Translations under genes and position numbers: made by a program | Part shown: piece after piece, positions 1,348 to 54,860 of the stretch | How the letters are laid out: the number at the start of each line of letters is the position of its first letter | Numbering within the stretch: the first letter of the stretch is position 1 | Origin: Clostridiales bacterium | Lineage (GTDB): Bacteria; Bacillota; Clostridia; Christensenellales; Aristaeellaceae | Reading direction: 5' to 3' | DNA length: 64,000 nt | Assembly: GCA_015056085.1 (NCBI GenBank) | Contig: SVHA01000006.1 | Location: 11,729 to 75,728 of the forward strand | The notes under the pieces: generated by a model | What the model was told of the DNA's origin: nothing | Databases searched by the model: none | Seen by the model: the letters and a program-made list of their open reading frames with translations, nothing else

Positions 1348-1500
1348 CCAGGGGGTGCAACCTCCTGGACTCCTTGGTGAGGGCTTTGCCCCCAGCAGGG
1401 GCTCCGCCCCTGCACCCCGTTCGGGGGCGCTGCCCCCGACACCCCCGCAAGGGCCATTGGCCCTTGACCCATTACCCCAAGCCCAAGGGCTTGGGGGATT
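1348..1500 (+). repeat. Module A: tandem GC triloop-hairpin array starting 1 nt after the stop codon
   Basis: Hairpins include gcaggggc-tcc-gcccctgc, tcgggggc-gct-gcccccga and the constant gcaagggcc-att-ggcccttg, each followed by ACCCC. Same module at 2391, 7108, 12644, 25747 and 26897. Confidence 0.9.
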
Positions 1501-1510
1501 GTTCATATGT
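1475..1510 (+). terminator. Terminator-like hairpin closing module A (ccccaagccc / gggcttgggg)
   Basis: 10-bp GC stem followed by attgttcatatg. The same stem at other loci is followed by a clearer T-run. Confidence 0.5.
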
Positions 1511-1542
1511 GGGATTTTCCTTACATGATGTTTTGTTATGCG

Positions 1543-1675
1543 AGGTAGGGTTTCGCCCTCACGGGCGACCAAAGGGCTTTCCGATCGGTCCGCCTCCGCT
1601 TCGCTCCGGAAACTCGCCTTCGGCGACTGCCCACTGGGCAGTTCGTTTCCTTTGGAAACCTTCGGATGCAAGTAG
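1543..1675 (+). repeat. Module B1-long
   Basis: A gtgagg/cctcac-type hairpin, then ccaaagg...cctttgg closing a ~70-nt insert that contains cgcc-ttc-ggcg and ctgccc-act-gggcag hairpins. Colinear with the reverse complement of 12480-12600. Confidence 0.85.
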
Positions 1676-1687
1676 TTTTAGCATTGC

Positions 1688-2008
1688 ACAAACAAAAGCC
1701 CCCTCCGGAAGGGGGCACCGCCGTCAGGCGGTGGGGGAGCCTGCGGTGCAGCGGGTATGATTTCTTGCAAGGGGTAGCGCTTGTTGGATGTTCTTTCTCA
1801 AGCCTGAGAAAGAACCAAAGAGGGCCAGAGGGGGTGTCTCAATTCATCCCACCCGGAGACACCCCCTCTGGACTCCCCCCCTTTCCCCCGGTCTTGTGAG
1901 GGTTATTGAGTTGACTGACCCACAAACGCCTCGCGGGGGCGGCCCGCTTCGGGAGCGCTCCGATGGAGTCCGTGTGCGGCGACGGAGCGCCGCACGCCGG
2001 AACTGTCG
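1688..2008 (+). repeat. Module D: ~320-nt conserved structured core
   Basis: Shared with 6385-6832, 12112-12458 (reverse complement) and 26288-26637. Contains ccccctcc-gga-agggggc, caccgcc-gtca-ggcggtg, gttctttctca..tgagaaagaac, a 16-bp stem at 1825-1871 and gtgcggcg-acggag-cgccgcac. Confidence 0.9.
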
Positions 2009-2054
2009 TACCGGGGCGGGGATGAGGCGTGTTTCGGTTCCTTGCCGGAACAGG

Positions 2055-2115
2055 CAATCCCTCAGTCAAAAATCAGAGATTTTTGTCAGCTCCCTTTACA
2101 CAAGGGTGCCTTTTT
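2055..2115 (+). repeat. Fragment homologous to the 3' flank of the DUF559 gene cassette
   Basis: caatccctcagtca...cagctccctttacacaagggtgcc matches 55833-55882 (caatccctcagtca...cagctccctttacacaagggagcc). The internal hairpin has a different stem sequence. Confidence 0.7.
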
Positions 2116-2157
2116 GAGCCACTGCTAAATTGTTCTTTACGGCAAGGCTTTTCTTGC

Positions 2158-2222
2158 AAGGTGAGGTTTCGCCCTCACGAGCGACCAAAGGGCTTTCCGA
2201 TCGCCCTTTGGAAACCTTCGGG
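2158..2222 (+). repeat. Module B1-short
   Basis: gtgagg-tttcgc-cctcac, then ccaaaggg-ctttccgatcg-ccctttgg (2185-2211), then gaaaccttcgg. Confidence 0.85.
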
Positions 2223-2307
2223 TACCCTCGGATGAAAGGGGTATTAGTCTGATGGTTGAAGAAACGGTTTCCTTTCCTCCGGTTAGGTCAACTCCAAACG
2301 GTGCGAG

Positions 2308-2344
2308 CCGAAGGGGTCCAGGGGGCGATCGGAAAGCCCCCTGG
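2308..2344 (-). repeat. Module B2-short (GGG/CCC stem variant)
   Basis: The plus strand reads ccgaaggggtccagggggcgatcggaaagccccctgg, which is the reverse complement of the B2 form at 6877-6913. Confidence 0.8.
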
Positions 2345-2383
2345 TTGCCCCGGCAAAGACAAGAGAGATGTACAAATGCCCTC

Positions 2384-2418
2384 AACAAAAAATCCCCCAA
2401 GCCCGTCAGGGCTTGGGG
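2384..2418 (-). terminator. Terminator-like hairpin closing module A downstream of hom
   Basis: The minus strand reads ccccaagccc-tgac-gggcttgggg followed by gattttttgttg. Confidence 0.6.
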
Positions 2419-2544
2419 TGATGGGTCAAGGGCCAATGGCCCTTGCGGGGTCCAGGGGCAGCGCCCCTGGTGGGTTTCCAAAGGGCAAAGCCCTTTGGTG
2501 CGGGGCAAAGCCCCGCAAAAGGAGTCCAGGGGCGAAGCCCCTGG
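2391..2544 (-). repeat. Module A abutting the hom stop codon (2545)
   Basis: In the sense of hom: ccaggggc-ttc-gcccctgg, gcggggc-ttt-gccccgc, ccaaagggc-ttt-gccctttgg, ccaggggc-gct-gcccctgg, the constant gcaagggcc-att-ggcccttg, then the terminator-like hairpin. Confidence 0.9.
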
Positions 2545-3822
2545 TCACCCTTCGGTGCGAATAACGCTCTGTACCTGGCAGACGGCTTTCGGCATGGCGG
2601 CGAGCGCCGCCTGCACGGACATTTCCGGGGCGGAATGGGTAATCAGCACAAGGGTCAGGCGGCCATCCACCGGGGCGTCCCGCTGCACCATGGTGGCAAT
2701 GGACACATTCTCCCGGGCAAGGCAGCCGGCGATTTTTTCCAGCGTGCCGGGGGCGTCCACGGCACTCATGCGCACAAAGAAGCGGGTGTTCCAGTTGCGG
2801 GTGAACTGCAGGGACACATCCGGCTCGGCGAGGAAGGCAGAATCCGGGAAGAAATGCTCCGTCGCATTGCCAGCCCGCATGATGTCTCCCACAATAGCGC
2901 TGGCGGTGGGCAGATCGCCCGCACCGCGGCCCTGCAGCATCATTTCCTTGCAGGCGTGACCGCTGAGGTATACGGCGTTGAAGGAATCATGCACCCGGGA
3001 CAGGGGATGTTCCTTGGGCAGGAAAGTGGGATGCACCCGCACTTCCACCGTGTCGCCCTCCCGCTTGGCCACGGCCAGCAGTTTCATCACATAGCCCAGT
3101 TCCTTGCCCCAGGCGATATCCTCCTGGGTCACGCCGGTGATGCCTTCACGATACACCTGCTTGAAGGGCACGCGGGTATGGAATGCCAGGGACGCCATGA
3201 TCGACAGCTTGTAGGCGGCGTCCATGCCCTCCACGTCGCTGGAGGGATCCGGCTCGGCCAGGCCCAGTTTCTGGGCGTCTGCCAGCACGGCGGCGTAATC
3301 CTCACCCTGCTCGTACATCCGGGAGAGAATATAGTTCGTAGTGCCGTTGATGATGCCCATGATGCTGCTGATGCGGTTGCTCTGCATGGGGCCGGACAGC
3401 ACGTCGATCACCGGGATGGCGCCGCATACGCTGGCCTCATAATACAGTCCTGCACGGCCATGGCGGGCGGCCTCGTGGAGGCGGTGCCAGTTCAGCGCCA
3501 ACGCCATCTTGTTGGCGGTGACGACGGTCTTGCCGCTCTTGAGCGCCCGGAGCATATATTCCGTGGCGGGCTGTTCGCCGCCCATGAATTCCGCCACCAG
3601 GGTGATTTCCGGGTCGCAGAGCACATCTTCAGGGCAGGTGGTCAGAAGGGATTGGGGCACAGAGCAGGTGCGTGCCTTGTTCACATTGCGCACCAGCACC
3701 TTCTTCACCCGGATTTTCAGGTTCGCCCGCTGGGCCAATTCCTTCTCAAAGCCTTCCAGCAGTTTCCACACGCCGCCGCCCACATTGCCGCAGCCCAGAA
3801 AGCCGATCACCAGTTCCTTCAT
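2545..3822 (-). CDS. hom: Homoserine dehydrogenase
   Basis: 425 aa. N-terminal NAD-binding GFLGCGNVGGGV, a central homoserine dehydrogenase core and a C-terminal ACT-like region. Confidence 0.9.
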   Translation of the reverse strand: MKELVIGFLGCGNVGGGVWKLLEGFEKELAQRANLKIRVKKVLVRNVNKARTCSVPQSLLTTCPEDVLCDPEITLVAEFMGGEQPATEYMLRALKSGKTVVTANKMALALNWHRLHEAARHGRAGLYYEASVCGAIPVIDVLSGPMQSNRISSIMGIINGTTNYILSRMYEQGEDYAAVLADAQKLGLAEPDPSSDVEGMDAAYKLSIMASLAFHTRVPFKQVYREGITGVTQEDIAWGKELGYVMKLLAVAKREGDTVEVRVHPTFLPKEHPLSRVHDSFNAVYLSGHACKEMMLQGRGAGDLPTASAIVGDIMRAGNATEHFFPDSAFLAEPDVSLQFTRNWNTRFFVRMSAVDAPGTLEKIAGCLARENVSIATMVQRDAPVDGRLTLVLITHSAPEMSVQAALAAMPKAVCQVQSVIRTEG

Positions 3823-6384: not shown

Positions 6385-6832
6385 CTTGCAAGGGATAGCG
6401 CTTGTTGGGTGTTCTTTCTTGGGTCTGAGAAAACCCTTGCGGCATTTCGGTAATGATTAGCGTTCTTTCTCAAGCCTGGGAAAACCCTTGCGGCATTTCG
6501 GTAATGATAAGCGTTCTTTTTCGAGCCTGAGAAACCATTGCGGCATTTCGGTAATGATTAGTGTTCTTTCTCAAGCCTGAGAAAACTTTTGCGGCATTTC
6601 GGTAATGATTAGTGTTCTTTCTCAGGCCTGAGAAAGAACCAAAGAGGGCCAGAGGGGGTGTCTCAATTCATCCCACCCGGAGACACCCCCTCTGGACTCC
6701 CCCCTTTCCCCCTGTCTTGTGTTGGTTATTGAGTTGACTGCCCCACAAGCGCCTCGCAGGGGCGGCCCGTTTCAGGGTCGCTCCGATGGAGTCCGTGTGC
6801 GGCGACGGAGCGCCGCACGCCGGAACTGTTGT
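6385..6832 (+). repeat. Module D copy (contains the 51-bp tandem expansion)
   Basis: Runs from cttgcaagggatagcgcttgttgg to cgccgcacgccggaactgtt. The invariant 47-nt hairpin is at 6649-6695. Confidence 0.9.
6411..6640 (+). repeat. Tandem repeat, ~51-bp unit, 4 full copies plus the ancestral partial copy
   Basis: Units start at 6411, 6462, 6513, 6563 and 6614 (gttctttctcaagcctgagaaaacccttgcggcatttcggtaatgattagc). The whole unit repeats with no unique spacers. Confidence 0.9.
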
Positions 6833-6876
6833 GGAGTGTCTTGGTTGATACCTGTTTCACGACCTTGCCGTCACAA

Positions 6877-6913
6877 CCAGGGGGCTTTCCGATCGCCCCC
6901 TGGACCCCTTCGG
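6877..6913 (+). repeat. Module B2-short
   Basis: ccaggggg-ctttccgatcg-ccccctgg followed by accccttcgg. Confidence 0.85.
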
Positions 6914-7003
6914 CTTGACCCCTACCGGCAATCTTGAGCAAGCAACAAAAGAAAAACCGTTCCTCCAACAAGCAGGTTACAACCCTAAACAAGAGATGGG
7001 ACT

Positions 7004-7064
7004 CCGAAGGTTTCCAAAGGGCGATCGGAAAGCCCTTTGGTCGCCCGTGAGGGCGAAACCTCAC
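7004..7064 (-). repeat. Module B1-short
   Basis: The plus strand reads ccgaaggtttccaaagggcgatcggaaagccctttggtcgcccgtgagggcgaaacctcac. Confidence 0.85.
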
Positions 7065-7101
7065 TTTGCATAAAAGCATAGCCTGAAAGGAAAATCCATC
7101 T

Positions 7102-7133
7102 ACAAAAAATCCCCCAAGCCCTTGGGCTTGGGG
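7102..7133 (-). terminator. Terminator-like hairpin closing module A downstream of aconitase
   Basis: The minus strand reads ccccaagccc-aa-gggcttgggg followed by gattttttgtag. Confidence 0.6.
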
Positions 7134-7240
7134 TAATGGGTCAAGGGCCAATGGCCCTTGCGGGAGTCCAGAGGGCAGAGCCCTCTGGTGGGGCGTGGGG
7201 CAAAGCCCCACATAAGGGGGGCGTGGGGCGAAGCCCCTGG
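7108..7240 (-). repeat. Module A abutting the aconitase stop codon (7241)
   Basis: In gene sense there are three variable hairpins (for example gtggggc-ttt-gccccac and ccagagggc-tct-gccctctgg), then the constant hairpin and the terminator-like hairpin. Confidence 0.9.
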
Positions 7241-9169
7241 TCAAAGCCCTTCCCGGGTATAGTTCAGCAGTCCGCCGCAGAGGATGCAGCCCCGCTGGCG
7301 GTCGGTGAGGGGCATCAGGACGGTGTAATCCTCCTGGCGGGTGAGGTTGCGCAGGATGAACGCTTCGCTGCCGCATTCCACCAGCGGGCGCAGGGCGGGC
7401 AGAATCAGTTCATCACCGGGGGCGATGCGGTCGTAATCCGCCTCATCGGCAAAGGTCAGGGGCAGAATGCCGTTGTTGATGAGATTCGCCTGATGAATCC
7501 GGGCGAAACTCTTGGCGACCACCGCCCGCACGCCCAGATACAGCGGCACCAGGGCGGCGTGTTCCCGGCTGGAGCCCTGACCATAATTGGCGCCGGCCAC
7601 CAGAATGCCGCCGCCGGCTGCCTTCGCCCGGGCAGGGAAGGTGGCGTCCACCGGTGTGAGACAGAAATCGGCAAGGTAGGGCACGTTTGAGCGGAAGGGC
7701 AGGAGCTTGGCGTCGGAGGGCGCAATGTGGTCGGTGGTGATGTTGTCCTCCATTTTCAGCAGCACCTGGCCGGAAACATCATCCGGAAGCGTCCTGCCCA
7801 TGGGGAAGGGCTTGATGTTGGGGCCCCGCACCACATCCACCGTATTTTCCTGACCGGCGGCGACAGGGGGAATCACCAGATTGTCGTTGATTTCAAAGGT
7901 TTCCGGCTGGGGGATGTCCAGATCGATGTTCAGGCTGCGGGGATCCGTCAGCACGCCGGTGAGGGCGGTGATGGCGGCGGTTTCGCAGGAAACCAGATAG
8001 ATGCCGGCGCTGCGGGTGCCGCTGCGGCCGTAGAAATTGCGGTTGTTGGTGCGCACGGACACGGCGCCGGACTTGGGCGACTGCCCCATGCCGATGCAGG
8101 GTCCGCAGGCGGATTCCAGAATGCGGGCGCCGGCGCCCAGCATATCCGCCAGGGCACCGTTGCGGGCCAGCATGGTCAGCACCTGCTTGGAGCCGGGGCC
8201 AATCACCAGACTCACATCCGGGTGAACGGTCTTGCCCTTCAAAATCCGGGCGACACGCATCATGTCCGTGTAGGAGGAATTGGTGCAGGAGCCGATGAAC
8301 ACCTGATCTACCTTGATGGGCCCGCATTCTTCCACGGTGACCACCTCATCAGGCATATGCGGGCGGGCCACCAGCGGCACGAGGGCGGAAAGATCAATGT
8401 GGATGACTTCGTCGTAGACGGCGTCTGCATCGGCGCACAGGGGGGTGAAATCCCTCTCCCGCTGCTGGGCACGGAGGAAATCCCGGGTGATTTCATCCGC
8501 CGGGAAAATGGAAGTGGTGGCGCCCAGCTCGGCGCCCATATTGGCGATGGTGGCTCTTTCGGGCACGGACAGGGTCTTGACGCCCTCGCCGATGTATTCC
8601 ATCACCTTGCCCATGCCGCCCTTCACCGTCAGGCGGCGCAGCACTTCCAGAATGACGTCCTTGGCGGCCACGCCGTAGGGCAGGCGGCCGGTCAGCTCCA
8701 CACCCACCACCTTGGGGCAGGAGAGGTAATACGCTCCGCCGCCCATGGCCACGGCCACGTCCAGTCCGCCGGCGCCGATGGCCAGCATACCCAGACCGCC
8801 GCAGGTGGGCGTGTGGCTGTCAGAGCCCAGCAGGGTCATGCCGGGCACGCCGAAGCGCTCCAGATGCACCTGATGGCAGATGCCGTTGCCGGGCTTGGAG
8901 CAATAGATGCCATGCTTTTTCGCCACCGACTGAATAAACTGATGGTCGTCGGCGTTTTCAAAGCCGGTTTGCAGGGTGTTGTGGTCAATGTATGCTACGG
9001 ATTTCTTCGTCCGCACCCGGTCAATGCCCATGGCTTCAAACTGCAGATAAGCCATGGTGCCGGTGGAATCCTGGGTGAGGGTCTGATCAATGCGGATGGA
9101 AATCTCCGTGCCGGGCGTCAATTCGCCGGACAGAAGATGGTCGGACAGGATTTTCTGTGTCAGGTTCAT
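7241..9169 (-). CDS. Aconitate hydratase (short ~640-aa clostridial/Aquifex-type aconitase)
   Basis: Fe-S ligand motifs GSDSHTPTCGG, IGSCTNSS and CGPCIGMG. Start chosen at ATG 9169 (MNLTQKIL), with AAGGAG 7 nt upstream, rather than ORF-track 9217. Confidence 0.9.
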   Translation of the reverse strand: MNLTQKILSDHLLSGELTPGTEISIRIDQTLTQDSTGTMAYLQFEAMGIDRVRTKKSVAYIDHNTLQTGFENADDHQFIQSVAKKHGIYCSKPGNGICHQVHLERFGVPGMTLLGSDSHTPTCGGLGMLAIGAGGLDVAVAMGGGAYYLSCPKVVGVELTGRLPYGVAAKDVILEVLRRLTVKGGMGKVMEYIGEGVKTLSVPERATIANMGAELGATTSIFPADEITRDFLRAQQRERDFTPLCADADAVYDEVIHIDLSALVPLVARPHMPDEVVTVEECGPIKVDQVFIGSCTNSSYTDMMRVARILKGKTVHPDVSLVIGPGSKQVLTMLARNGALADMLGAGARILESACGPCIGMGQSPKSGAVSVRTNNRNFYGRSGTRSAGIYLVSCETAAITALTGVLTDPRSLNIDLDIPQPETFEINDNLVIPPVAAGQENTVDVVRGPNIKPFPMGRTLPDDVSGQVLLKMEDNITTDHIAPSDAKLLPFRSNVPYLADFCLTPVDATFPARAKAAGGGILVAGANYGQGSSREHAALVPLYLGVRAVVAKSFARIHQANLINNGILPLTFADEADYDRIAPGDELILPALRPLVECGSEAFILRNLTRQEDYTVLMPLTDRQRGCILCGGLLNYTREGL

Positions 9170-9188
9170 CAGCGGTCTCCTTCGGAAA

Positions 9189-9258
9189 ATTGTATACAGG
9201 ATGCAATTATTGGTCAACTCACAGCATCATCATACAGCCCCGGAGGAAAGCGCGTCAA
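9189..9258 (-). promoter_or_regulatory. Two candidate tandem sigma-A promoters for the aconitase gene
   Basis: On the minus strand: TTGACG-18-TATGAT (9258-9229) and TTGACC-17-TACAAT (9217-9189). The palindrome gtcaactgtttttgac overlaps the upstream -35. Confidence 0.35.
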
Positions 9259-11496: not shown

Positions 11497-11916
11497 ATGG
11501 CATACAACGTAATCAATGAGATTGTCAAAGTATTCGACGCAGAAAACGTGAACTATCAGACCTATGATGAGGGCGGAATCTCCTGCGTGGCAGCCATTTG
11601 CGAGGGCAAGAACGCCCGTGAAATTGTTGTCCACTTTACGGTCACCAATGACGAAGAAGCCGTTTATGTCCTGAGCCTCGGCTTTGCAACCGTGCCGGAC
11701 GATAAGGTGCCTTCCGTGCTGGCGACCCTCTCCAAGTTGAACAATCAATACCGCTATGTTCGCTTCATTCTCGATGACAGCAACGACGTCGCTGTGAACT
11801 ATGATATTCCCCTGAGCACGGCCGATGTGGGCGAAGTGGCCTGCGAGTTGCTGTATCGCATGGCGCAGACAATTGATGCGGCGTATCCCGAACTGATGGA
11901 GGCCATCGAGGGCTGA
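11497..11916 (+). CDS. YbjN-like protein, paralog 2
   Basis: YRYVRFILDDSNDVAVNYDIPL...VGEVACELL. AGGAGG lies 9 nt before ATG 11497. An in-frame ATG at 11491 is only 3 nt from the RBS. Confidence 0.55.
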   Translation: MAYNVINEIVKVFDAENVNYQTYDEGGISCVAAICEGKNAREIVVHFTVTNDEEAVYVLSLGFATVPDDKVPSVLATLSKLNNQYRYVRFILDDSNDVAVNYDIPLSTADVGEVACELLYRMAQTIDAAYPELMEAIEG

Positions 11917-11997: not shown

Positions 11998-12080
11998 CCC
12001 GCAGGCTCCCCACCGCCTTGCGCTGGAGCCCCCTCCTGGAGGGGGCTTTTGTTTGTGCCATGCTAAGACTACTTGCATCC
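11998..12080 (-). repeat. Duplicated fragment of module D (direct repeat of 12404-12482)
   Basis: gcaggctccccaccgcc..ggagccccctcc.ggagggggcttttgtttgtgccatgctaagactacttgcatcc occurs twice about 405 bp apart. Confidence 0.85.
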
Positions 12081-12111
12081 TTGTTAGTTGACTTAGCCCC
12101 GGTAAAAAATT

Positions 12112-12458: not shown

Positions 12459-12479
12459 CCATGCTAAGACTACTTGCAT

Positions 12480-12600: not shown

Positions 12601-12629
12601 CTTGCATAAAAACATAGCCTGAAAGAAAA

Positions 12630-16116: not shown

Positions 16117-17058
16117 TTAGCGCATAAACCAAGTGCTGATATAGCCGGTCTCGCCGTCAACATCCACCTTGCACCAGTCGGTGCCGTGTTCGATCACCGT
16201 CACCTTGGTGCCCACAGGCACGGTGCGGATGATGCTGCCCTTGAGGCTGGGCTGATTGCGGAAGTTGACAATGCTGCCGCCGTTGTAGTTCACCAGCGTC
16301 ATGGTGAAGGGCTTGATGGAGGCGTTTTCATTGGTAATTTTGAGGAAGGAGGCCATCATGTAGCCGATGGTGCCGTCTTCCGTCTGCACCTTGTGCCAGT
16401 CCTTGCCGCTCTTGACGATGGTCACCTTCGTGCCATTGCGGAACTGGCCCAGCACCTTGGCGTCCAGAGAGGGCTCGGCGCGGAAGTTGAGCACCTGGGT
16501 GTCACGGGGGTTGTTCACCACGGCCACCTTGCCCTGAGCGGCAGAGGGCTGCTCCTGAGCGAAGTTCAGGTATTCCGTGGCCATAAAGCCTTCCTGACCG
16601 TTCACCTTCACCCGGCTCCACTGGTGGCCCTTCTGTATCACGATCACTTCCGTGCCGGGCTTGAAAGAGGTGATGATCTCAGCGGAGAGGCTGGGGGCGT
16701 TACGGAGATTCAGGCCGATACCGGTGTTGGTGCGCACCTGCGCTTCCCGGTCCTCGCCGTCCCAGGTGAGGTACTTGGTCATCATGTAGCCGGACTTGCC
16801 GTTGACCTGCACCTTGCACCAGTCCTTGCCGTCTTCCACCACTTCCACCAGCGTGCCGGTGGGGAACTGGCCCAGCACCTTCGCCGTCAGAGAGGCTTCC
16901 TGGCGCAGGTTCAGCCGACCGCCCTTCACCAGTGCGCTGTCAGCAGCGTCAGCCATGGCGGCGCCTGCAAAGAGCATTGCAGCAGCGGCGGTCATGCCCG
17001 CCATGCGGCGCAGGGCGATGCGGGTTTTTTCGGGAGTGTTCTTCATGGGGGTCTTCAT
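16117..17058 (-). CDS. Secreted protein with four bacterial SH3 (SH3b) repeats
   Basis: Four repeats of LN(L/F)R..PSL.......G..V.V......W.KV...G..GYM. Signal peptide AAAAMLFAGAAMA. Start ATG 17058 (MKTPMKN) has AAGGAGG 9 nt upstream. Confidence 0.8.
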   Translation of the reverse strand: MKTPMKNTPEKTRIALRRMAGMTAAAAMLFAGAAMADAADSALVKGGRLNLRQEASLTAKVLGQFPTGTLVEVVEDGKDWCKVQVNGKSGYMMTKYLTWDGEDREAQVRTNTGIGLNLRNAPSLSAEIITSFKPGTEVIVIQKGHQWSRVKVNGQEGFMATEYLNFAQEQPSAAQGKVAVVNNPRDTQVLNFRAEPSLDAKVLGQFRNGTKVTIVKSGKDWHKVQTEDGTIGYMMASFLKITNENASIKPFTMTLVNYNGGSIVNFRNQPSLKGSIIRTVPVGTKVTVIEHGTDWCKVDVDGETGYISTWFMR

Positions 17059-17387
17059 TTGGGGTTTCCTCCTTTGGTGTTTTGCTGTGGGCGGTTTCTC
17101 GCCGCCTGCAATCATCCAACGCCGGAAATACGGGCGATATTGCTGGGAGAAATTGCCATCCGCCGCTCGAAACGGCTGATTTTCCTGATGCTGGAAACAT
17201 CGTGGCGGCAATGCCAATCAGCCCATGAAAGCCCCAGGGAAGAATTTCCAGAGAGAATTTCCGCTTTTTTTACAAAACCCATGCCCTGTCGGGCTGTACA
17301 CGGAAGCGTTTTTGCGGTACAATAACAGTGGCGTATTTTACGCACCTGTTTCCAACCTATTCTTCTGAAGGAAAAGGAGTCCTGAGT

Positions 17388-18572
17388 ATGTTCAAGCGAG
17401 CGCTGTGTCTGGTTCTGTCCCTGATGATGATCCTGCTGGTGACGGCAGTGAAGGCGGAGGATTCCGCGTCTGCCCTGACCCTGGCAGAACTCAAGACCTG
17501 GGCCGAAAACTACAAGACCCGTGCCATGGAGGTTGAGCCCATCAACGATCCTGCGGCGCCGGAATCCAACACCGAGGACGGCTATATGTTCCTCTATGAG
17601 TTCGCCACCCTGTACATGGATCGGCCTGAAATGACCGCCGACAGCCAGGTGCAGTGCGTCGTGCTGTATTCCGGGCTGGAAAACGGTCCCCGGGAGACCC
17701 GGGTGGACATGACCGCCCAGGAGATTCTCGACGCCTACTACACCGAAAACCCCGACCTGGTGGGCAACCGGGACGGCGCCGTGGTGTATCAGCTGAACCT
17801 CATGCCCCAGACCGCCCAGGCGGGCGTGGCGCATCGTGACGGCCAGCGCCTGCAGACCATCGAGTACACCGTGTATGAGCAGCTGGCCACCGGCGGCGAC
17901 GGCTATTCCAACGCCGGCGTCATCTACACCCTCAACGCCAACAACGTCACCGCCATCCGTGTGTATGGCCTGGGCGACCGCTGCGGTAGCGAGGACGTGG
18001 ACCGGGCCATGGCGGAACTGGAAGCCCTGAGCCAGGAAATGACCTACTCTCAGGTGCAGATCAGTTTTGTGGGCACGGACCTGGACAAGTTCCAGCCCGA
18101 CGACCTGGCCTTCTCCGGCCTGGATTTTGCCGACCTGGCCCCCGACAGCGCCATCCAGGTGCTGGGTTTGCCGCTGGAAGACCAGTGGATGGAGGACGGC
18201 CAGCAGTATCTGCGGCTGATGTCCTTCCCCACCTGCGAGATCGTCTTCTCCTATGACGCCAATCAGGAGAATCCCCAGGTGGAATCCCTGCTGATTGACA
18301 TGGCCACCATGGAAGGCCCCCGTTCCCTGCGGGTGGGCGATACCTTCGCCAGCGTGCTTAACCGTTTCCGCCATTCCGAAGGCCAGCATGACGGCGTGGA
18401 CACCGAGGTGCTTTACGGCACGGAGGAATCCGGCGAGTTCGGCGTGGCCACCTATGGCATGGACGGCACCACCCTGCGATACGGCCTGAAACTGGGCGAC
18501 AAAAAGGTGGTCATGAACCTGTATTTCACCATGAACACCCTGGCGGAAATTTTCCTGTACGCGGCTGAATAA
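17388..18572 (+). CDS. Hypothetical secreted protein
   Basis: MFKRALCLVLSLMMILLVTAVKA is signal-like. AAAGGAG lies 8 nt before ATG 17388. No recognisable domain. Confidence 0.6.
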   Translation: MFKRALCLVLSLMMILLVTAVKAEDSASALTLAELKTWAENYKTRAMEVEPINDPAAPESNTEDGYMFLYEFATLYMDRPEMTADSQVQCVVLYSGLENGPRETRVDMTAQEILDAYYTENPDLVGNRDGAVVYQLNLMPQTAQAGVAHRDGQRLQTIEYTVYEQLATGGDGYSNAGVIYTLNANNVTAIRVYGLGDRCGSEDVDRAMAELEALSQEMTYSQVQISFVGTDLDKFQPDDLAFSGLDFADLAPDSAIQVLGLPLEDQWMEDGQQYLRLMSFPTCEIVFSYDANQENPQVESLLIDMATMEGPRSLRVGDTFASVLNRFRHSEGQHDGVDTEVLYGTEESGEFGVATYGMDGTTLRYGLKLGDKKVVMNLYFTMNTLAEIFLYAAE

Positions 18573-18613
18573 GAAAGTGCCGCCTTACGGATTGAACGGC
18601 AGAGGAGGACCCC

Positions 18614-21457
18614 ATGAAAGAACTGAAACGGATTGACCTGACCTGCCCGGTGGAGGTGCGGGGCTGCGCCATGGCGGAAGAAGCCTATGACGCCTGTACC
18701 CTGACGATGTTCAACCTCAGCGCAGAACAGGTCAGCAGCGTGGAAGTGACCCTGACGCTCACCAAAGAAGACGGAGAAGAATCCATTATCATCAATCACC
18801 GGGGACACGCCCTCAACGGCGCCCCGGGGAAACTTTTCACCATGGACATCCCGCTGGAAGGCAACGCCTTTGACGAATCGGCGCAGATCACCCTGGAAAA
18901 GGTGTGGTATGACAACAACTCCGTGTGGCGGCGCTCCAAGCAGCCCCTGACGGAGTATGAATCCAACGAAATGCCCCTGTCCAACAGCCTGACCAACCTG
19001 CGCATGGTGGTGGGCGAGGACGCCGTGGGCTATCCCCGGGAGGATGAAAACCTGTGGGTGTGCGTCTGCGGCCGCCCCAATGAACTGGAGCGGGACCGCT
19101 GCGTGCGCTGCACCCGTCATCATCAGGATGTGTTCACCCGCTGCACCCGTCAAATGGTGGAGACCCTTATCGCCCGCCGCAAGGAGGAGCTGGAAGCTCA
19201 GGGGCGTGCCGCCCGGGAGGAAGCCTCCCGCAAGCAGCTGGCCCGGGAAGCGGCTTATCAGCTGCGCCGCAAGCGCCGTCGCCGCATCGCCGCCACGCTG
19301 ATCACCCTGATTGTGCTGGCCGGCGCTGCTGCCGCCACGGTGCTGTATGTGCTGCCGGAAATGCACTACCGTCAGGCCCTGGCGCTGATGGATTCCGCCG
19401 AGTATGGCAAGGCTTCCGAGACCTTTGCCCTCCTGAAGGGCTACAAGGACAGCCCTGAAAAAATCAGCGAATGCACCTATCTGGAAGGCAAAGCGCTGCT
19501 GGATGAAGCCGCCGACCTGTCCGCCGCCCGGGAAGCCTTTGTTTCCCTGGGGGATTATCAGGACGCTGCGGAACTGGTCAAGGAATGCGATTACCTCACG
19601 GCGCTGGATCTGTTTCAGCAGGACAGCCGGGAGGACGCCGCCGAGATGTTCACTAATCTGGACGGCTACAAGGACAGCCACAATTATCTGCTGAAAATCG
19701 ACTACCTCAACGCCTCCGACCTGATGGCATCGGGCGATCTGGCCCTTGCCCGGGAAGCCTTCGGCGACCTTGGCGAATACGAGGATTCTCAGGACAAGGT
19801 GAAGGAATGCTGGTATCTGGAAGCCACGGCGGCTATGAGCAATCAGCAGCCGGACAAGGCGCTGGCAGCCTTGCGCTACATTCCCGGATATCAGGACGCC
19901 GACGAGATGACCCTCCAGGCGCACTATATGACTGGCATCGCCCTGCGGGACGCCGGAAAACCGGCGGAAGCGGCAGAGGCCTTCCTGCTGGCCGGGGATT
20001 ACGAGGATGCTCCCCAGCAGGCGCTGGATTGCTTCTACGGCCCGGCCCAGCAGGCGCTGGACAAGCGTGACTACGTGCTGGCGGCGGAACTGTTCGGGCG
20101 GATTTCCGGCTATCTGGATGCCGACGAAAAACGCCAGCAGGCCATTTATCTGGACGCCGAAAAGGCCGTCAAGGACACGGAATACACCCGTGCCCAGACG
20201 CTGCTTGCCCAATTGCCAGAAGACTATGAAGATGTGGCTGACCTGAAGAAGGAGTGCATCTATCAGCCGGCGGAAAACGCCTACGACGAAGGCAGGTATG
20301 AAGAAGCGCTGGCGCTGTTCTTGCAGGTGGAGGGCTACTCCAACGCCGACGCCCGCATCAAGCGCTGCCGCTACAAGATTGCCGAAGCCCACTACAGCGC
20401 CAAGGAATGGGAAAAGGCCATCCCCCTGTACGAAATGCTGGGGAACTATTCTTCCAGCGAATCGCACCTCAAGACCAGCCGTTACAACCAGATGAAACTG
20501 GACATGGAACTGGCCACCATGGAAGGTTACGACAAGGTGATCGTTGCCGCCACCGTGCTGGACGGCTACAAGGACAGCGAGGATTATCTGGAAAAGGCGC
20601 AATATGCCAAGGCAAAACTGCTGCTGGCCGCCGGAGACATCTCTGGCGCCCGGGAACTGTTTGCCTCCCTGGGCAAGTATTCCGACGCAGCGACCCAGGT
20701 CAAGGCCTGCGATTACGCCGCCGCTGAAAAGGCCCTGGCGGAAGACCGGCTGGAAGACGCCGCCGGGATGTTCCTGGCCCTGGGGAACTACGAAGACGCT
20801 GCCCAACGGGCGGCGGGCGTGTATTACCTCATGGGTGTGCGGCTGGCGGACGAAGGCAAGAAACTGGAAGCCGCCCGGCAGTTTGAAAAGGCGGGAACAT
20901 ACGAAGGCGCATCGGAGCACGCCATGTCCATCTATGATGAATACTATGCTGAAACGGCAGTAGCGGCCCAGGACGCCTACGATAACGGCTATTACGAGAT
21001 GTGCATCACCCTGCTGTCCGAACTGGACCGCACGGCGGTGCCCGCCAAGTATGCCTACGTCAATGACCTCTACGACGACGCCTGCTTTGCCGAGGCGGAG
21101 AGGCTCTATGACGCCGGGCTGCCTTTCGAGGCGCTGCCGTACTACCGGCTCATTCCCACCTATCCCAAGGTGGACGTCCGGCTGGAGCGGGACTGCTATA
21201 TGTTCCTGGGCGCATGGCGGGACCTGCAGGACAACCTGTATCTCTTCAGGGAAGACGGCACCTGCTCCCTGGCGGGTCAGGAGGCCTTCTTCAACATTGC
21301 GGACGACCATCTCCTCACCGGCGAAACGGCGGATGCCCTGCAGGTGACCCACCGCTTCTCCGGCGTGACCAAGCGCAACATCTGGCTCTACGATCAGCGC
21401 ACCGGCGAGGAAATCACCGTGTATCTGACCAAGGACAACAACTACAGGCAGGAATGA
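18614..21457 (+). CDS. Zinc-ribbon / single-TM protein with ~14 tandem ~36-aa (G-Y-x-D ... C-x-Y) repeats
   Basis: WVCVCGRPNELERDRCVRC is a zinc ribbon. TM segment IAATLITLIVLAGAAAATVLYVL. Repeats such as LGDYQDAAELVKECDYL, LDGYKDSHNYLLKIDYL and LGEYEDSQDKVKECWYL. Confidence 0.75.
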   Translation: MKELKRIDLTCPVEVRGCAMAEEAYDACTLTMFNLSAEQVSSVEVTLTLTKEDGEESIIINHRGHALNGAPGKLFTMDIPLEGNAFDESAQITLEKVWYDNNSVWRRSKQPLTEYESNEMPLSNSLTNLRMVVGEDAVGYPREDENLWVCVCGRPNELERDRCVRCTRHHQDVFTRCTRQMVETLIARRKEELEAQGRAAREEASRKQLAREAAYQLRRKRRRRIAATLITLIVLAGAAAATVLYVLPEMHYRQALALMDSAEYGKASETFALLKGYKDSPEKISECTYLEGKALLDEAADLSAAREAFVSLGDYQDAAELVKECDYLTALDLFQQDSREDAAEMFTNLDGYKDSHNYLLKIDYLNASDLMASGDLALAREAFGDLGEYEDSQDKVKECWYLEATAAMSNQQPDKALAALRYIPGYQDADEMTLQAHYMTGIALRDAGKPAEAAEAFLLAGDYEDAPQQALDCFYGPAQQALDKRDYVLAAELFGRISGYLDADEKRQQAIYLDAEKAVKDTEYTRAQTLLAQLPEDYEDVADLKKECIYQPAENAYDEGRYEEALALFLQVEGYSNADARIKRCRYKIAEAHYSAKEWEKAIPLYEMLGNYSSSESHLKTSRYNQMKLDMELATMEGYDKVIVAATVLDGYKDSEDYLEKAQYAKAKLLLAAGDISGARELFASLGKYSDAATQVKACDYAAAEKALAEDRLEDAAGMFLALGNYEDAAQRAAGVYYLMGVRLADEGKKLEAARQFEKAGTYEGASEHAMSIYDEYYAETAVAAQDAYDNGYYEMCITLLSELDRTAVPAKYAYVNDLYDDACFAEAERLYDAGLPFEALPYYRLIPTYPKVDVRLERDCYMFLGAWRDLQDNLYLFREDGTCSLAGQEAFFNIADDHLLTGETADALQVTHRFSGVTKRNIWLYDQRTGEEITVYLTKDNNYRQE

Positions 21458-25687: not shown

Positions 25688-25715
25688 TCTTGCGTCAATT
25701 GGGTTGAAACACTTC

Positions 25716-25746
25716 CCCCTCCGGAGCAATCCGGAGGGGTTTTTTG
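25716..25746 (+). terminator. Intrinsic terminator of the rpsF operon
   Basis: cccctccgga-gcaa-tccggagggg followed by tttttt. Confidence 0.9.
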
Positions 25747-25925
25747 TGGGGCTTTGCCCCTGCACCCTTTTGCGGGGCTTTGCCCCGCACCCCACCAGGG
25801 GCTCTGCCCCTGGACCCCGGTTGGGGGCCCTGCCCCCGACACCCCTTTCTGCGGGGCTTTGCCCCGCACCCCAGCAGGGGCTCTGCCCCTGCACCCCGCA
25901 AGGGCCATTGGCCCTTGACCCATCA
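25747..25925 (+). repeat. Module A, longest array (7 tandem hairpins)
   Basis: tggggc-ttt-gcccct, gcggggc-ttt-gccccgc, caggggc-tct-gcccctg, tgggggc-cct-gccccc, gcggggc-ttt-gccccgc, gcaggggc-tct-gcccctgc and gcaagggcc-att-ggcccttg. Each is followed by (C)ACCCC. Confidence 0.9.
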
Positions 25926-25964
25926 CCCGGAAATCCTGACGGATTTCCGGGGTGTTCTTTTTTT
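25926..25964 (+). terminator. Variant terminator hairpin closing module A
   Basis: cccggaaatcc-tgac-ggatttccggg followed by gtgttcttttttt. It has the same tgac loop as the ccccaagccc hairpins but a different stem. Confidence 0.65.
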
Positions 25965-26004
25965 GAGGTAGTTTTGGACATTTGGCTTGTTTTCACCGGG
26001 GCAA

Positions 26005-26102
26005 CCAGGGGGCTTTCCGATCGGTCCGCCTCCGCTTCGCTTCGGAAACTCGCCTTCGGCGACTGCCCACTGGGCAGTTCGTTTCCCCTGGACCCCTTCG
26101 GT
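26005..26102 (+). repeat. Module B2-long
   Basis: ccagggg...cccctgg closes the same ~70-nt insert as B1-long, followed by accccttcgg. Confidence 0.85.
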
Positions 26103-26186
26103 CTGCATCCTTGTAAGTAGACTTTGCCGGAACAAAAAAACCGTTTCTCCTACAAACATACTAATACCCCTTCATCCGGAGGGAGC

Positions 26187-26247
26187 CCGAAGGTTTCCAA
26201 AGGGCGATCGGAAAGCCCTTTGGTCGCCCGTGAGGGCGAAACCCCAC
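26187..26247 (-). repeat. Module B1-short
   Basis: The plus strand reads ccgaaggtttccaaagggcgatcggaaagccctttggtcgcccgtgagggcgaaaccccac. Confidence 0.85.
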
Positions 26248-26287
26248 CTCGCACAAAGACTTGTTTTGGAGAAAAATCGTGCGACGG

Positions 26288-26637
26288 CACAAACAAAAGC
26301 CCCCTCCGGGAGGGGGCTCCGCCGTCAGGCGGTGGGGGAGCCTGCGCTGCTGCGGGTATGACCTCTTGCAAGGGATAGCGCTTGATAGGCGTTCTTTCTC
26401 AGGCCTGAGAAAGAACCAAAGAGGGCCAGAGGGGGTGTCTCAATTCATCCCACCCGGAGACACCCCCTCTGGACTCCCCCCTTTCCCCCTGTCTTGTGAG
26501 AGTTATTGGGTTGACTGCCCCACAAACGCCTCGCGGGGGCGGCCCGTTTCGGGGTCGCTCCGATGGAGTCCGTGTGCGGCGACGGAGCGCCGCACGCCGG
26601 AACTGTTGTAGAGGAGCGGGTACGAAGCGTGCTTCGG
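26288..26637 (+). repeat. Module D copy
   Basis: The invariant 47-nt hairpin is at 26426-26472. The 3' extension ggaactgttgtagaggagcgggtacgaagcgtgcttc is shared with L3. Confidence 0.9.
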
Positions 26638-26727
26638 TTTGTTGCAGGAGCGAAGTCAACTTTCAAGAGATGGGACTCCGATGATAGTTGACCGAGCAAT
26701 AAACAAAGGCTAATCCCCCATACAAAC

Positions 26728-26772
26728 AATCCCCCAAGCCCTTCAAGGCTTGGGGTGATGGGTTAAGGGCCA
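26728..26772 (-). repeat. Truncated module A (terminator-like hairpin plus half of the constant hairpin)
   Basis: aatcccccaagcccttcaaggcttggggtgatgggttaagggcc, then an abrupt junction to taagactacttgcatcc. Confidence 0.8.
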
Positions 26773-26789
26773 AATAAGACTACTTGCAT

Positions 26790-26851
26790 CCGAAGGTTTC
26801 CAAAGGGCGATCGGAAAGCCCTTTGGTCGCCCGTGAGGGCGAAACCCTCAC
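26790..26851 (-). repeat. Module B1-short
   Basis: Same sequence as 7004-7064 and 26187-26247. Confidence 0.85.
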
Positions 26852-26885
26852 CTCGCACAAAAGCACAGTATGAAAGGAAAAGCCT

Positions 26886-26921
26886 ACATACAAAACATCC
26901 CCCAAGCCCTTGGGCTTGGGG
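26886..26921 (-). terminator. Terminator-like hairpin closing module A downstream of the zinc-ribbon/TPR gene
   Basis: The minus strand reads ccccaagccc-aa-gggcttgggg followed by gatgttttgtatg. Confidence 0.5.
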
Positions 26922-27054
26922 TGATAGGTCAAGGGCCAATGGCCCTTGCGGGGTGTAGGGGCAGCGCCCCCGACTGGGGTGCGGGGCAAAGCCCCGCAAA
27001 AGGGTCCAGGGGGCATAGCCCCCTGGTGGGTTCCCCAAGGGCAAAGCCCTTGGG
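26897..27054 (-). repeat. Module A abutting stop codon 27055
   Basis: In gene sense: cccaagggc-ttt-gcccttggg, ccagggggc-tat-gccccctgg and gcggggc-ttt-gccccgc, then one imperfect unit, the constant hairpin and the terminator-like hairpin. Confidence 0.9.
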
Positions 27055-54859: not shown

Positions 54860-54860
54860 T

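Follow-up and report, generated by a model that had tools for sequence, protein, structure and literature searches.

REP/BIME elements of Escherichia coli and other Proteobacteria are short, GC-rich extragenic palindromes, found for the most part at the 3′ ends of genes or between genes that converge. They form mosaic clusters with conserved linkers, have been proposed to stabilise and terminate transcripts, and trigger rearrangements and assembly breaks. The defining features are imperfect palindromes of 20–40 nt, a GTAG-like 5′ foot and units that alternate in orientation. Pneumococcal BOX elements are built from boxA, boxB and boxC in the fixed order A-B(n)-C; to our knowledge, no pseudoknot has been described in them. 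Miniature elements derived from IS200/IS605 have a subterminal hairpin at each end on the same strand, insert beside a fixed tetra- or pentanucleotide and are accompanied by a TnpA gene in the genome, while T4-type phages carry promoter-stem-loop mobile regulatory cassettes between genes, thought to promote modular shuffling. REPINs, in which two inverted REPs enclose a spacer, depend for mobility on a Y1 transposase gene that is present in one copy and flanked by REPs, and are described as vertically inherited (PMC3116915, PMC3337134). Type III antitoxin RNAs (ToxI) are arrays of pseudoknot repeats, in units of ~34–47 nt at one locus, immediately upstream of a ToxN-like toxin gene (PMC3401426).

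Here we describe four loci in a window of 64,000 nucleotides (the whole stretch of DNA analysed) from an uncultured rumen Clostridia bacterium: L1 (1348–2544), L2 (6385–7240), L3 (11998–12762) and L4 (25747–27054), in window coordinates. Three-digit labels (L001, L002, L152 and so on) denote other contigs or stretches, distinct from these loci. An earlier note had compared the loci with BIME and BOX elements, a fair description of their architecture. As in REP/BIME, GC-rich extragenic hairpins are present in many copies (22 of module A and at least nine of module B in the window; at least eight loci), and mosaic clustering, linkers, 3′-end placement and assembly breaks are shared. The family is nevertheless unrelated in sequence to REP, BIME and REPIN elements. 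Alignments reveal no GTAG head, the units beginning CCA, GCA, TCG or similar, then GGGG(C); A units run head to tail inside an arm (22/22) rather than alternating, and abut stop codons with a canonical predicted terminator next; B, with its pseudoknot and conserved 9-nt loop, is conserved across species and present in phages; and the host is a Firmicute with no RAYT among the ~50 window genes. With BOX the loci share modular, non-coding intergenic repeats of variable internal unit number and predicted stable RNA structures, but sequence family, base composition and host differ (BOX being set apart by its description), and the mosaic loci use a polar arm grammar with terminators.

Four gene-free loci share one set of modules

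The proposal that all four loci draw on a shared kit of GC-rich hairpin modules was borne out, the modules being 80–98% identical. In a repeat search, L1 1512–2048 was colinear with the reverse complement of L3 12099–12633, as the earlier note had suggested, in three segments of 225, 155 and 173 nt at 90–93% identity. The same search matched 12080–12412 to 26335–26667 (93% identity across 333 nt) and module D at 6606–6836 to 26383–26613 (95%) and, ungapped, to 1783–2013 (68%). Numerous shorter modules are also common to the four loci. When the loci were used as blastn queries against the whole window, 148 hits were obtained, all inside the loci except two of 30 nt each (55432–55461 and 55855–55884).

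Codon-position GC and Pfam analysis of the window genes upheld the strictly intergenic placement: the loci are the window's largest gene-free gaps (1072, 912, 846 and 1367 nt). Open reading frames within them, already suspected of not being genes, are missing the GC3 signature of genuine genes. A Pfam scan of the ~50 window genes likewise agreed with the reported absence of mobility genes, with no transposase, RAYT or reverse transcriptase, and no integrase, among them. The statement that the modules match no known family also stood, as Rfam 15 gave no hits at gathering threshold in the whole window; permissive scans of all four loci gave either none or chance-level hits far below gathering scores. 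The parts of each locus are as follows.

Locus L1
1348–1470, plus strand: A array of the left arm, head-to-tail GC-rich triloop hairpins with (C)ACCCC linkers, beginning 1 nt past the stop codon of a DnaJ/TPR gene (850–1347) (sequence, hairpin scan, Pfam of flanking gene)
1475–1505, plus: predicted intrinsic terminator, CCCCAAGCCC-loop-GGGCTTGGGG and T-run, same direction as the DnaJ/TPR gene (terminator scan)
1543–1665, plus: B1-long of AAA stem type; a 61-nt insertion follows GATCG in the loop of hairpin 2 (alignment of B copies) and interrupts the covariance model, so that the hit is only partial (14 bits)
1664–1736, minus: Y module, two hairpins and a T-run forming a reverse-facing terminator, 1716–1698 (repeat search, terminator scan)
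1737–2048, plus: D copy 1, with 26-bp palindrome, 16-bp-stem hairpin, C-rich tract and GC hairpin domain
2159–2223, plus: B1 short form, with hairpin 1, hairpin 2 and tail (cmsearch 70.2 bits, E 2e-18)
2306–2372, minus: B2 short form, GGG stem type, convergent with B1 2159–2223 across an 82-nt spacer (cmsearch 46.4 bits)
2395–2418, minus: predicted intrinsic terminator, same direction as the homoserine dehydrogenase gene (terminator scan)
2427–2544, minus: A array of the right arm, abutting the homoserine dehydrogenase stop codon (gene 2545–3822, minus); a weak cmsearch match at 2466–2518 (27.8 bits) points to relatedness of A to B

Locus L2
6380–6632, plus: five tandem units of 50–51 nt, homologous to the D 5′ edge, each with a half-degenerate D palindrome copy at its end (repeat search)
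6606–6836, plus: D copy 2, core only (repeat search, D alignment)
6855–6915, plus: B2 short form immediately after D (covariance model), a junction that recurs in L001 20298–20648
7002–7066, minus: B1 short form, convergent with B2 6855–6915 (cmsearch 73.7 bits)
7112–7133, minus: predicted intrinsic terminator, same direction as the aconitase gene (terminator scan)
7142–7240, minus: A array abutting the aconitase stop codon (gene 7241–9217, minus) (sequence, hairpin scan, Pfam)

Locus L3
12000–12080, plus: Y copy, serving as the terminator (12025–12049) of a YbjN-like gene (repeat search, terminator scan)
12099–12412, minus: D copy 3, its forward 3′ end with a terminator-like hairpin, 12129–12113
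12401–12481, plus: second Y copy, 94% identical to 12000–12080, terminator 12426–12450 (repeat search, terminator scan); direct Y repeats thus flank D
12480–12602, minus: B1-long, sharing its 61-nt insertion with 1543–1665 (alignment of B copies)
12648–12671, minus: predicted intrinsic terminator, same direction as the AI-2E transporter gene (terminator scan)
12680–12762, minus: A array following the AI-2E transporter gene (12763–13791, minus) (hairpin scan, Pfam)

Locus L4
25748–25925, plus: A array of the left arm, beyond the rpsR gene's own terminator (25716–25739)
25926–25951, plus: predicted intrinsic terminator, CCCGGAAATCC...GGATTTCCGGG variant (terminator scan)
25985–26101, plus: B2-long, GGG stem type, sharing its 61-nt insertion with the B1-long copies (alignment of B copies)
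26185–26249, minus: B1 short form, convergent with B2-long, the two separated by 83 nt (cmsearch 73.0 bits)
26286–26337, minus: Y module, reverse-facing terminator 26320–26296 (repeat search, terminator scan)
26338–26667, plus: D copy 4, terminator-like 3′ hairpin 26618–26634 (repeat search, terminator scan)
26732–26755, minus: extra terminator module, inner copy (terminator scan)
26788–26852, minus: B1 short form of the right arm (cmsearch 71.0 bits)
26900–26921, minus: predicted intrinsic terminator, same direction as the TPR/CHB_HEX gene (terminator scan)
26930–27054, minus: A array abutting the TPR/CHB_HEX stop codon (gene 27055–29004, minus) (hairpin scan, Pfam)

A further copy of D had been placed at 6385–6832; this holds for 6606–6836, whereas 6385–6605 consists of the five tandem units.

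Arms follow the direction of the preceding gene

Each arm reads in a fixed order, from stop codon to A array, intrinsic terminator, linker and module B. Most loci have two inverted arms, L2 and L3 a single one. The modules had been thought to be used independently of orientation, but A arrays, terminators and adjacent B copies follow the direction of the gene whose stop codon precedes them. In a hairpin scan, 22/22 A hairpins had their pyrimidine-rich triloop on the adjacent gene's sense strand, and the first hairpin starts 0–1 nt past the stop codon at 1348, 2544, 7240 and 27054; the outermost A units vary from locus to locus. The suggestion that the loci are terminator arrays was partly right, a consensus scan predicting 2–5 intrinsic terminators per locus (33 against 14 expected at 1–14 kb; 10 against 2.9 expected at 25.3–27.2 kb). 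A and B are similar in sequence (GGGC-TTT-GCCC...ACCCC-GG and GGGC-TTT[CCGATC]GCCC...ACCCC[TTC]GG, respectively), and A arrays also give weak hits to the B covariance model. By sequence, A units thus look like stripped-down relatives of B that lack both pseudoknot strands.

Module B is a conserved, strand-specific pseudoknot

B is a 60–70 nt element of two covarying hairpins with the conserved loop CUUUCCGRUC. A covariance model trained solely on sequences from other organisms recovered the window copies at 70–74 bits on one strand, against 16–24 bits on the opposite strand. Among 62 copies, hairpin 1 was 97.7% paired, with double changes at five of six pairs, and hairpin 2 was 98.7% paired, with double changes at five of nine. 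The loop and tail form a pseudoknot, which was left out of the model used to align the copies and was 98.2% paired; none of 500 shuffles reached these values, and slid controls collapsed. A CCGR loop accompanies a CGG tail in 78 copies and a GCGR loop a CGC tail in 18, with no crossed combinations, and this pairing is held across many different stems. G.U pairs are confined to one strand: one pair of the closing helix has 27 of them, and the fourth pair of the pseudoknot 9 (later 26). The length and sequence of the linker track stem 2 almost deterministically, the closing GGGC/GCCC pairs and the loop are kept between species, and B-long copies have an optional extra domain at a fixed position in the loop. 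B is thus a hairpin-pseudoknot not described before. Its strand-specific fold is kept from species to species with compensatory changes, and the mosaic family possibly contains, in B, a new RNA motif. A small-peptide gene was considered and rejected: stem 2 measures 7, 8 or 9 bp, and because these lengths do not differ by multiples of three they put the conserved core in different frames, with pairing kept, so B is not coding.

The window copies of B, at least nine, all lie within gene-free gaps. Three convergent pairs have spacers of ~82–88 nt (2159–2372, 6855–7066 and 25985–26249), and convergent pairs also occur in other species (L056, L068 and L120). These doublets, with spacers of ~85 nt, are reminiscent of REPINs, as is a non-autonomous, multicopy element with a strand-specific single-strand fold. 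They differ in that no Y1 transposase gene was found among the ~50 window genes or beside B in L068, L023 and L182, in the presence of B on phage contigs, and in that each B (~60 nt) is a two-hairpin pseudoknot, more complex than a REP. The single-strand-specific fold and loop-tail pairing are compatible with, but not diagnostic of, IS200/IS605-derived elements. B also forms tandem arrays (L043, L130, L023 and L116), resembling ToxI as short pseudoknotted repeats; however, it is dispersed, often single, in both orientations and beside ordinary genes. A type III antitoxin array was rejected, as no toxin gene was found among the B neighbours and most copies are single or convergent.

Module B is shared by Clostridia and phages

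B was detected in many ruminant and gut Clostridia MAGs, 49 IMG/VR stretches (about 50 viral contigs) and 11 human-faecal phage contigs, and in a phage with terminase, portal and capsid genes. Homoserine dehydrogenase, aconitase, AraC-family, esterase, isocitrate dehydrogenase and phage capsid genes are among its neighbours. Beside the copies in L068, L023 and L182, no transposase, RAYT, integrase or reverse transcriptase was found. Several phage contigs have B between structural genes, in the sense orientation and 0–10 nt past stop codons. In other phages every copy is antisense to genes; L182, for example, has a capsid gene on the plus strand and seven B copies on the minus strand. A crude tally of gene contexts gave 16 antisense and 11 sense. 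As a short structured intergenic cassette repeated between phage genes, B is similar to the T4 cassettes; it differs in having no recognisable promoter, in being common to phages and host chromosomes and in its conserved pseudoknot.

Related species differ in whether B occupies an orthologous gap. In a relative of 72% identity (L156/L157), B lies between the homoserine dehydrogenase gene and an IMS-family polymerase gene; in that gap a relative of 87% identity (L152) has a plain terminator only. The cross-species conservation of B (pseudoknot, near-invariant 9-nt loop) exceeds what is usual for REP-type repeats, and could instead mean a host or phage function.

Module D has two near-invariant blocks

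D is ~330 nt long and built on a GAG-type unit hairpin that bears a long extension at its apex; B-long, Y and D form a colinear unit of ~540 nt. At least eight copies were found, all in this organism's contigs and none elsewhere. Across eight copies, two blocks are near-invariant (3/150 columns variable, against 61/117 elsewhere; Fisher p 1.5e-23), which points to a sequence-specific function rather than decaying selfish DNA. Within them lie C-rich single-stranded motifs, a loop (AUCCCACCC) and a tract (CUCCCCCCUUUCCCCC). The forward strand folds at −172.6 kcal/mol and the reverse at −151.9 kcal/mol (z-scores −5.3 and −4.4). Forward D closes with a terminator-like hairpin in L3 and L4, which is replaced by B2 in L2 and L5, and D has the same direction as its upstream B in L1, L3 and L194.

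Origin of the mosaic loci

In our favoured reading, to which we assign a probability of about 0.5, the loci are accumulation sites of one non-autonomous, structure-defined intergenic repeat family, similar in kind to REP/BIME/REPIN and carried by rumen and gut Clostridia and their phages. Its basic unit would be a GC-rich hairpin followed by an ACCCC-type linker, in three grades. Grade A would be the bare triloop hairpin, amplified head to tail directly behind stop codons. Grade B would add to an A-type hairpin the conserved loop of 9 nt, in which CCGR pairs with YCGG of the tail and so gives the pseudoknot. Usually a further covarying hairpin and a closing helix are present, and in some copies the loop holds an extra domain. 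Grade D would be the ~330-nt form around the GAG-type unit hairpin. A factor that acts in trans and recognises the folded single strand, whether RNA or single-stranded DNA, may spread the units and keep them uniform; they would persist beyond gene ends, where they would be harmless. Hairpins and terminators (the latter predicted by consensus scans) would become stacked both ways between neighbour genes, and would then insulate transcription and protect 3′ ends.

It is possible, if tentative, that B is not a selfish repeat but a functional cis-acting RNA device, a small three-way-junction pseudoknot co-transcribed with neighbour genes. It could block exoribonucleases (3′-5′ PNPase or RNase R; 5′-3′ RNase J), direct RNA processing or self-cleave, with the loci as device stacks and A arrays as simplified stabiliser hairpins. 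Strong covariation in two helices, a pseudoknot absent from the alignment model, one-stranded G.U pairs, cross-species conservation of the loop and closing pairs and the sense-strand phage copies just past stops between structural genes all argue for this, as do the optional domain at a fixed loop position, seen in many structured RNAs, and the linker that tracks stem 2, as expected of tertiary contacts. The all-antisense phages and the excess of antisense contexts in the crude tally are harder to accommodate; moreover, window copies are mostly downstream of predicted terminators, and no sigma-70-like promoter precedes B (none in 25.3–27.2 kb or in the linker). Rather unlikely, in our view, is that D, alone or within the ~540-nt unit, is a multicopy non-coding RNA gene with functional invariant blocks, whose C-rich AUCCCACCC and CUCCCCCCUUUCCCCC could pair with Shine-Dalgarno regions. 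The block invariance, the better folding of the forward strand, the terminator-like ends in L3 and L4 and the co-orientation with upstream B would fit such a gene. Scans found no promoter-like site upstream of D, however, and B2 takes the terminator's place in L2 and L5; the stems are invariant and so give no covariation evidence, the restriction of D to this organism's contigs affords no evolutionary test, and the invariance could stem from recent spread or gene conversion.

It appears very improbable that each locus arrived whole, as a foldback-type non-autonomous transposon whose long inverted arms comprise A, terminator, linker and B and which inserted between genes as a unit. Most loci do have two inverted arms, the left arm of L186 is without a preceding co-oriented gene, and contigs from the source organism and its relatives frequently break at mosaic loci; but outer ends vary between loci in unit number, order and sequence, L2 and L3 have a single arm, no target-site duplications or fixed element ends were identified at the loci, and A/B units are single or otherwise combined in other species and phages. 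Inverted copies recombine, or at least mislead assemblers: contig L002 fuses L1 to L3. This raises the question of a local duplication or assembly artefact without biological meaning, a reading already refuted by B copies with compensatory changes in other species and phages and by recurrence of the loci on more than ten independent contigs from different samples, including metagenome contigs L001–L010. At least four more mosaic loci lie outside the window (L001 20050–21278, L186, L190/L193 and L194), and at least eight mosaic loci obey one common grammar.

Extent of the mosaic loci

The four loci are real, their sharing of modules being well above what chance would give. A repeat search of the window recovered the colinearity between L1 (1348-2544) and L3 (11998-12762) described in the earlier note: positions 1512-2048 match the reverse complement of 12099-12633 at 90-93% identity. 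The recurrence claimed for module D, a unit of ~330 nt, was borne out in the same search (6606-6836 and 26383-26613, 95%), which also found that the D copies at 12080-12412 and 26335-26667 agree at 93% over 333 nt and that dozens of shorter modules are common to the loci. Blastn of L1, L2 (6385-7240), L3 and L4 (25747-27054) against the whole window gave 148 matches, two of which, each 30 nt long, lie outside the loci. Codon-position GC content and Pfam searches agree with the intergenic placement proposed earlier, as the four loci rank as the window's largest stretches free of genes. Likewise, no transposase, RAYT or reverse transcriptase was detected with Pfam among the ~50 window genes, and Rfam 15 gave no match at gathering score, in keeping with the earlier remark that the sequences match no recognised family. 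Permissive Rfam scans of all four loci reached chance level at best, and no tRNA or tmRNA genes were found.

The earlier note had proposed a check for copies beyond the window. The loci of the window recur on more than ten independent metagenome contigs, and the organism is a sporulating uncultured Clostridia bacterium from ruminant samples. A mosaic locus with the same modules lies just outside the window (contig L001, 20050-21278). Protein searches with a translated spurious D ORF recovered others between an SH3-repeat gene and a MatE gene (contig L186), next to uvrA (L190/L193) and next to a cupin gene (L194). Together with those of the window, these bring the known mosaic loci to at least eight. 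The independent contigs and the further loci exclude an artefact. In this organism at least eight gene junctions each contain nearly 1 kb of structured non-coding DNA, which makes up 6.4% of the window.

Organisation of the loci

The modules had been described as used independently of orientation, but this is not so: every locus consists of one or two inward-pointing arms. An arm starts at the stop codon of a gene, with the first hairpin 0-1 nt beyond the stop at 1348, 2544, 7240 and 27054. Module A follows, comprising GC-rich triloop hairpins arranged head to tail with (C)ACCCC linkers; the triloops are pyrimidine-rich on the sense strand of the adjacent gene in all 22 A hairpins of the window. 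Next comes a predicted canonical intrinsic terminator co-oriented with the gene (CCCCAAGCCC-loop-GGGCTTGGGG and a T-run, or the variant CCCGGAAATCC), then a conserved linker of ~50 nt and, at the end, module B, which points in the same direction as the rest of the arm. At the arm junctions, convergent B copies are separated by a spacer of ~85 nt (2159-2372, 6855-7066 and 25985-26249), and such doublets are found in other species too (L056, L068, L120). Between the arms lie D and the terminator module Y. Terminator-like sites are enriched and face both directions, numbering 33 in 1-14 kb against 14 expected and 10 in 25.3-27.2 kb against 2.9 expected. In relatives represented by contig L156, the EPSP synthase stop codon is abutted by A-type hairpins.

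Module B is a strand-specific hairpin-pseudoknot

On its forward strand, B reads 5′ to 3′ as a purine-rich 5′ strand, hairpin 1 (loop usually UGCG), a single A, hairpin 2 (loop CUUUCCGRUC, closed by GGGC/GCCC), a short linker and the tail CCUUCGG. A first set comprised 56 non-redundant short copies, drawn from ruminant Clostridia MAGs, IMG/VR contigs and the window itself. The covariance model R1 was built from alignment A4, with 11 sequences and none from the window; a MAFFT alignment (A2) was structurally misaligned and was left out, as was alignment A3, in which one row had been changed by hand for a check. Window copies scored 70-74 bits with this model on one strand and only 16-24 bits on the opposite strand. 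In an alignment of 62 copies, pairing reaches 97.7% in hairpin 1, where five of six pairs show compensatory changes, and 98.7% in hairpin 2, where five of nine do. None of 500 shuffles attained the observed values, and slid controls collapsed. The closing helix is only 67-82% paired in a variable register, and we consider it tentative.

The CCGR of loop 2 pairs with YCGG in the tail, an interaction absent from the covariance model. In a tally that used a wider viral scan, no copy combined the loop of one type with the tail of the other, and the pairing is kept across many different stems.

Loop and tail combinations of module B
Loop CCGA or CCGG, tail CGG: 78 copies
Loop GCGG or GCGA, tail CGC: 18 copies
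Crossed combinations: 0 copies

Forward-strand G.U pairs are frequent: one closing-helix pair has 27 of them and the fourth pseudoknot pair 9 to 26. As each would be a C.A mismatch on the opposite strand, B is a hairpin-pseudoknot specific to a single strand. Because its stems measure 7, 8 or 9 bp and so move the reading frame, B does not code for protein; a peptide gene was ruled out on these grounds. The linker between stem 2 and the tail is almost fully determined by stem 2, in its length as in its sequence; the closing helix, base triples or an alternative helix may account for this. Long forms of B carry an extra domain in the loop after GAUCG. The same 61-nt insert occurs in both stem subtypes of the window (AAA and GGG), and three other contigs (L023, L068, L134) have differing inserts at the same point.

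B shares its hairpin family with modules A and D. The A unit follows the pattern GGGC-UUU-GCCC ... ACCCC-GG and the B unit GGGC-UUU[CCGAUC]GCCC ... ACCCC[UUC]GG, so the two pseudoknot strands are exactly what A is missing. The covariance model of B matches A arrays weakly (22-28 bits). The 16-bp hairpin of D, with base CCAGAGGG/CCCUCUGG followed by ACUCC, is a GAG-type unit with a long apical extension.

Distribution and orientation of B

A scan of the genome collection with the 14-mer CGATCGGAAAGCCC returned 119 stretches but was too unspecific, most being chance matches in unrelated phyla; true B copies among them were picked out by blast and regex. B is present in several ruminant Clostridia MAGs, 49 IMG/VR stretches and 11 human-faecal ‘Bacteriophage sp.’ records, and on a contig with terminase, portal and capsid genes. 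Relatives of the window organism have an orthologous gap between the homoserine dehydrogenase (hom) and IMS-family polymerase genes, but what fills it differs: a B copy in a relative at 72% protein identity (L156/L157), and a plain terminator alone in a closer relative (L152, 87%).

In 11 of 12 multi-copy phage contigs the B copies are co-oriented. Ad hoc gene calls proved unstable for relating B strand to genes, and manual checks were used instead. These place B sense to the genes in L130, L141 and L175; seven minus-strand B copies in L182 are antisense to its capsid gene, which is encoded on the plus strand. With both kinds of phage contig in existence, a general sense-strand rule was rejected, and the orientation of B does not simply follow transcription. 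The L182 copies lie within a larger cassette of ~150-200 nt, repeated three times (1950-2200, 6480-6800 and 11500-11802) and always antisense to the structural genes, in the order CTCCCCTGAAAGGGGAG, GTCACCCGCAGGTGAC and one to three B units. The possibility that B arrays are a type III antitoxin was ruled out, no toxin gene being among those next to B copies. A literature search did not find the B core sequence, keyword searches gave general REP/REPIN and RNA-motif papers only, and B appears to be an undescribed motif.

Modules D and Y

Across viral, metagenome, phage and plasmid collections and a protein search, D was found solely in contigs of the window organism. The viral scan found none, the metagenome scan gave a single chance match on an unrelated contig, phage and plasmid collections yielded the terminator hairpin only or nothing, and exact look-ups of two spurious D ORFs gave no match. 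Eight aligned copies share two near-invariant blocks, with 3 of 150 columns variable against 61 of 117 outside the blocks (Fisher p = 1.5e-23, eight copies). The stems were invariant in five and then in eight copies, so covariation is uninformative either way. D folds better on the forward strand, whose 3′ end is a terminator-like hairpin in L3 and L4, and a reverse-facing Y terminator lies upstream. No promoter-like site for B or D was found by consensus scan or, in the conserved linker, by eye as well. The Y terminator hairpin AAAAGCCCCCTCCGGGAGGGGGCTCCGCCGTCAGGCGG (window 26299-26340) has 90-95% matches in six human-faecal ‘Bacteriophage sp.’ contigs, so the Y module is also shared beyond the window organism.

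Nature of the repeats

In Proteobacteria and pneumococci, extragenic mosaic repeats are classical knowledge; to our knowledge, hardly any description of them exists for the uncultured Clostridia that predominate in the rumen and gut. We favour, at a probability of about 0.5, a family of non-autonomous repeats of the REP/BIME/REPIN kind. The identity of such repeats would be set by their fold, and they would accumulate past gene ends, the effect in this genome being hairpins and terminators stacked in both directions. The BIME-like resemblance noted earlier stands for the architecture, which works as in BIMEs and REPINs, but membership fails on defining features: the GTAG head is absent, and units run head to tail whereas those of BIMEs alternate in orientation. 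The RAYT gene of REPIN-RAYT systems was not found in the DNA examined. A foldback transposon spanning the whole locus is very improbable, as the ends vary between loci and single-arm loci exist.

The main rival gives B a function as an RNA device. Conservation and a pseudoknot as strong as those of B would be unusual in a selfish repeat, but antisense copies exist, copies sit behind predicted terminators and no promoters were found, and we judge this rival rather unlikely. That D is a multicopy RNA gene seems improbable. Doubtful, yet worth entertaining, is a combined proposal in which B is a new class of functional structured RNA, D a multicopy regulatory RNA and the loci arrays of RNA devices, not selfish repeats. 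B, which is widespread among Clostridia of the gut and rumen and in the phages of these bacteria, would then be a three-way junction of ~65 nt that a loop-to-tail pseudoknot closes. It would have its own biochemical activity, for instance resisting exoribonucleases, cleaving itself or recruiting a conserved protein; D would share the hairpin grammar.

The loci hold a conserved pseudoknotted element that is common to bacteria and phages and unnamed in any database. Should B be a mobile single-stranded DNA element, it would point to a mobilising enzyme not yet known from Firmicutes; as an RNA device, it would be an abundant new motif whose covariation is clean and which is directly testable biochemically. 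Under either reading, its covariance model is a practical marker for genome annotation and phage-host linking.

Recombination and further observations

Metagenome assemblies break at the repeats, and many contigs terminate inside them. In contig L002 (1-2400, compared with window 324-2035 and 12751-11423), the DnaJ side of L1 is joined to the YbjN side of L3, so that the 10.6-kb segment between the inverted repeat copies runs opposite to its orientation in the window. The changeover from L1-type to L3-type diagnostic sites is clean and falls at about 1354-1438. Either homologous recombination has truly inverted the segment, or an assembler changed path within the repeat; the repeats mediate, or mimic, a 10.6-kb inversion. 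Contigs carrying relatives of the homoserine dehydrogenase at 74% identity are mostly just 1.3-6 kb long, which suggests that these assemblies also break right beside that gene, possibly at similar repeats.

Other intergenic repeat kinds surround the DnaJ/TPR gene in L156 (1-240 and 700-1240; 72% hom identity), where GGAATTCGGAATGCGGAAT-type short tandem repeats lie beside a GGGCGATCACAGATCGCCC hairpin, with inverted copies on both sides of the gene. A low-GC island in the window (54800-56350, 46% against ~60%) contains two genes:

54843-55352, Sel1-repeat gene
55456-55857, DUF559 gene (Vsr-like endonuclease fold)

Inverted 30-nt copies of a small hairpin, CTCCCTTTACACAAGGGAG, lie on either side of the DUF559 gene, and this hairpin is also found in L1 (2084-2113) and in L193 (about 2065-2090).

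A gene at 16117-17217 encodes four bacterial SH3 domains, and its 222-nt periodicity corresponds to direct-repeat families D6, D13 and D15. The product is an ordinary repeat-domain protein, unrelated to the mosaic repeats; SH3-repeat genes also adjoin the L186 mosaic locus. Two large genes (414 and 947 aa) at 17328-21457 have no Pfam match at E 1e-5, and within the 947-aa gene a separate set of repeats recurs every 225 nt (families D17 and D20).
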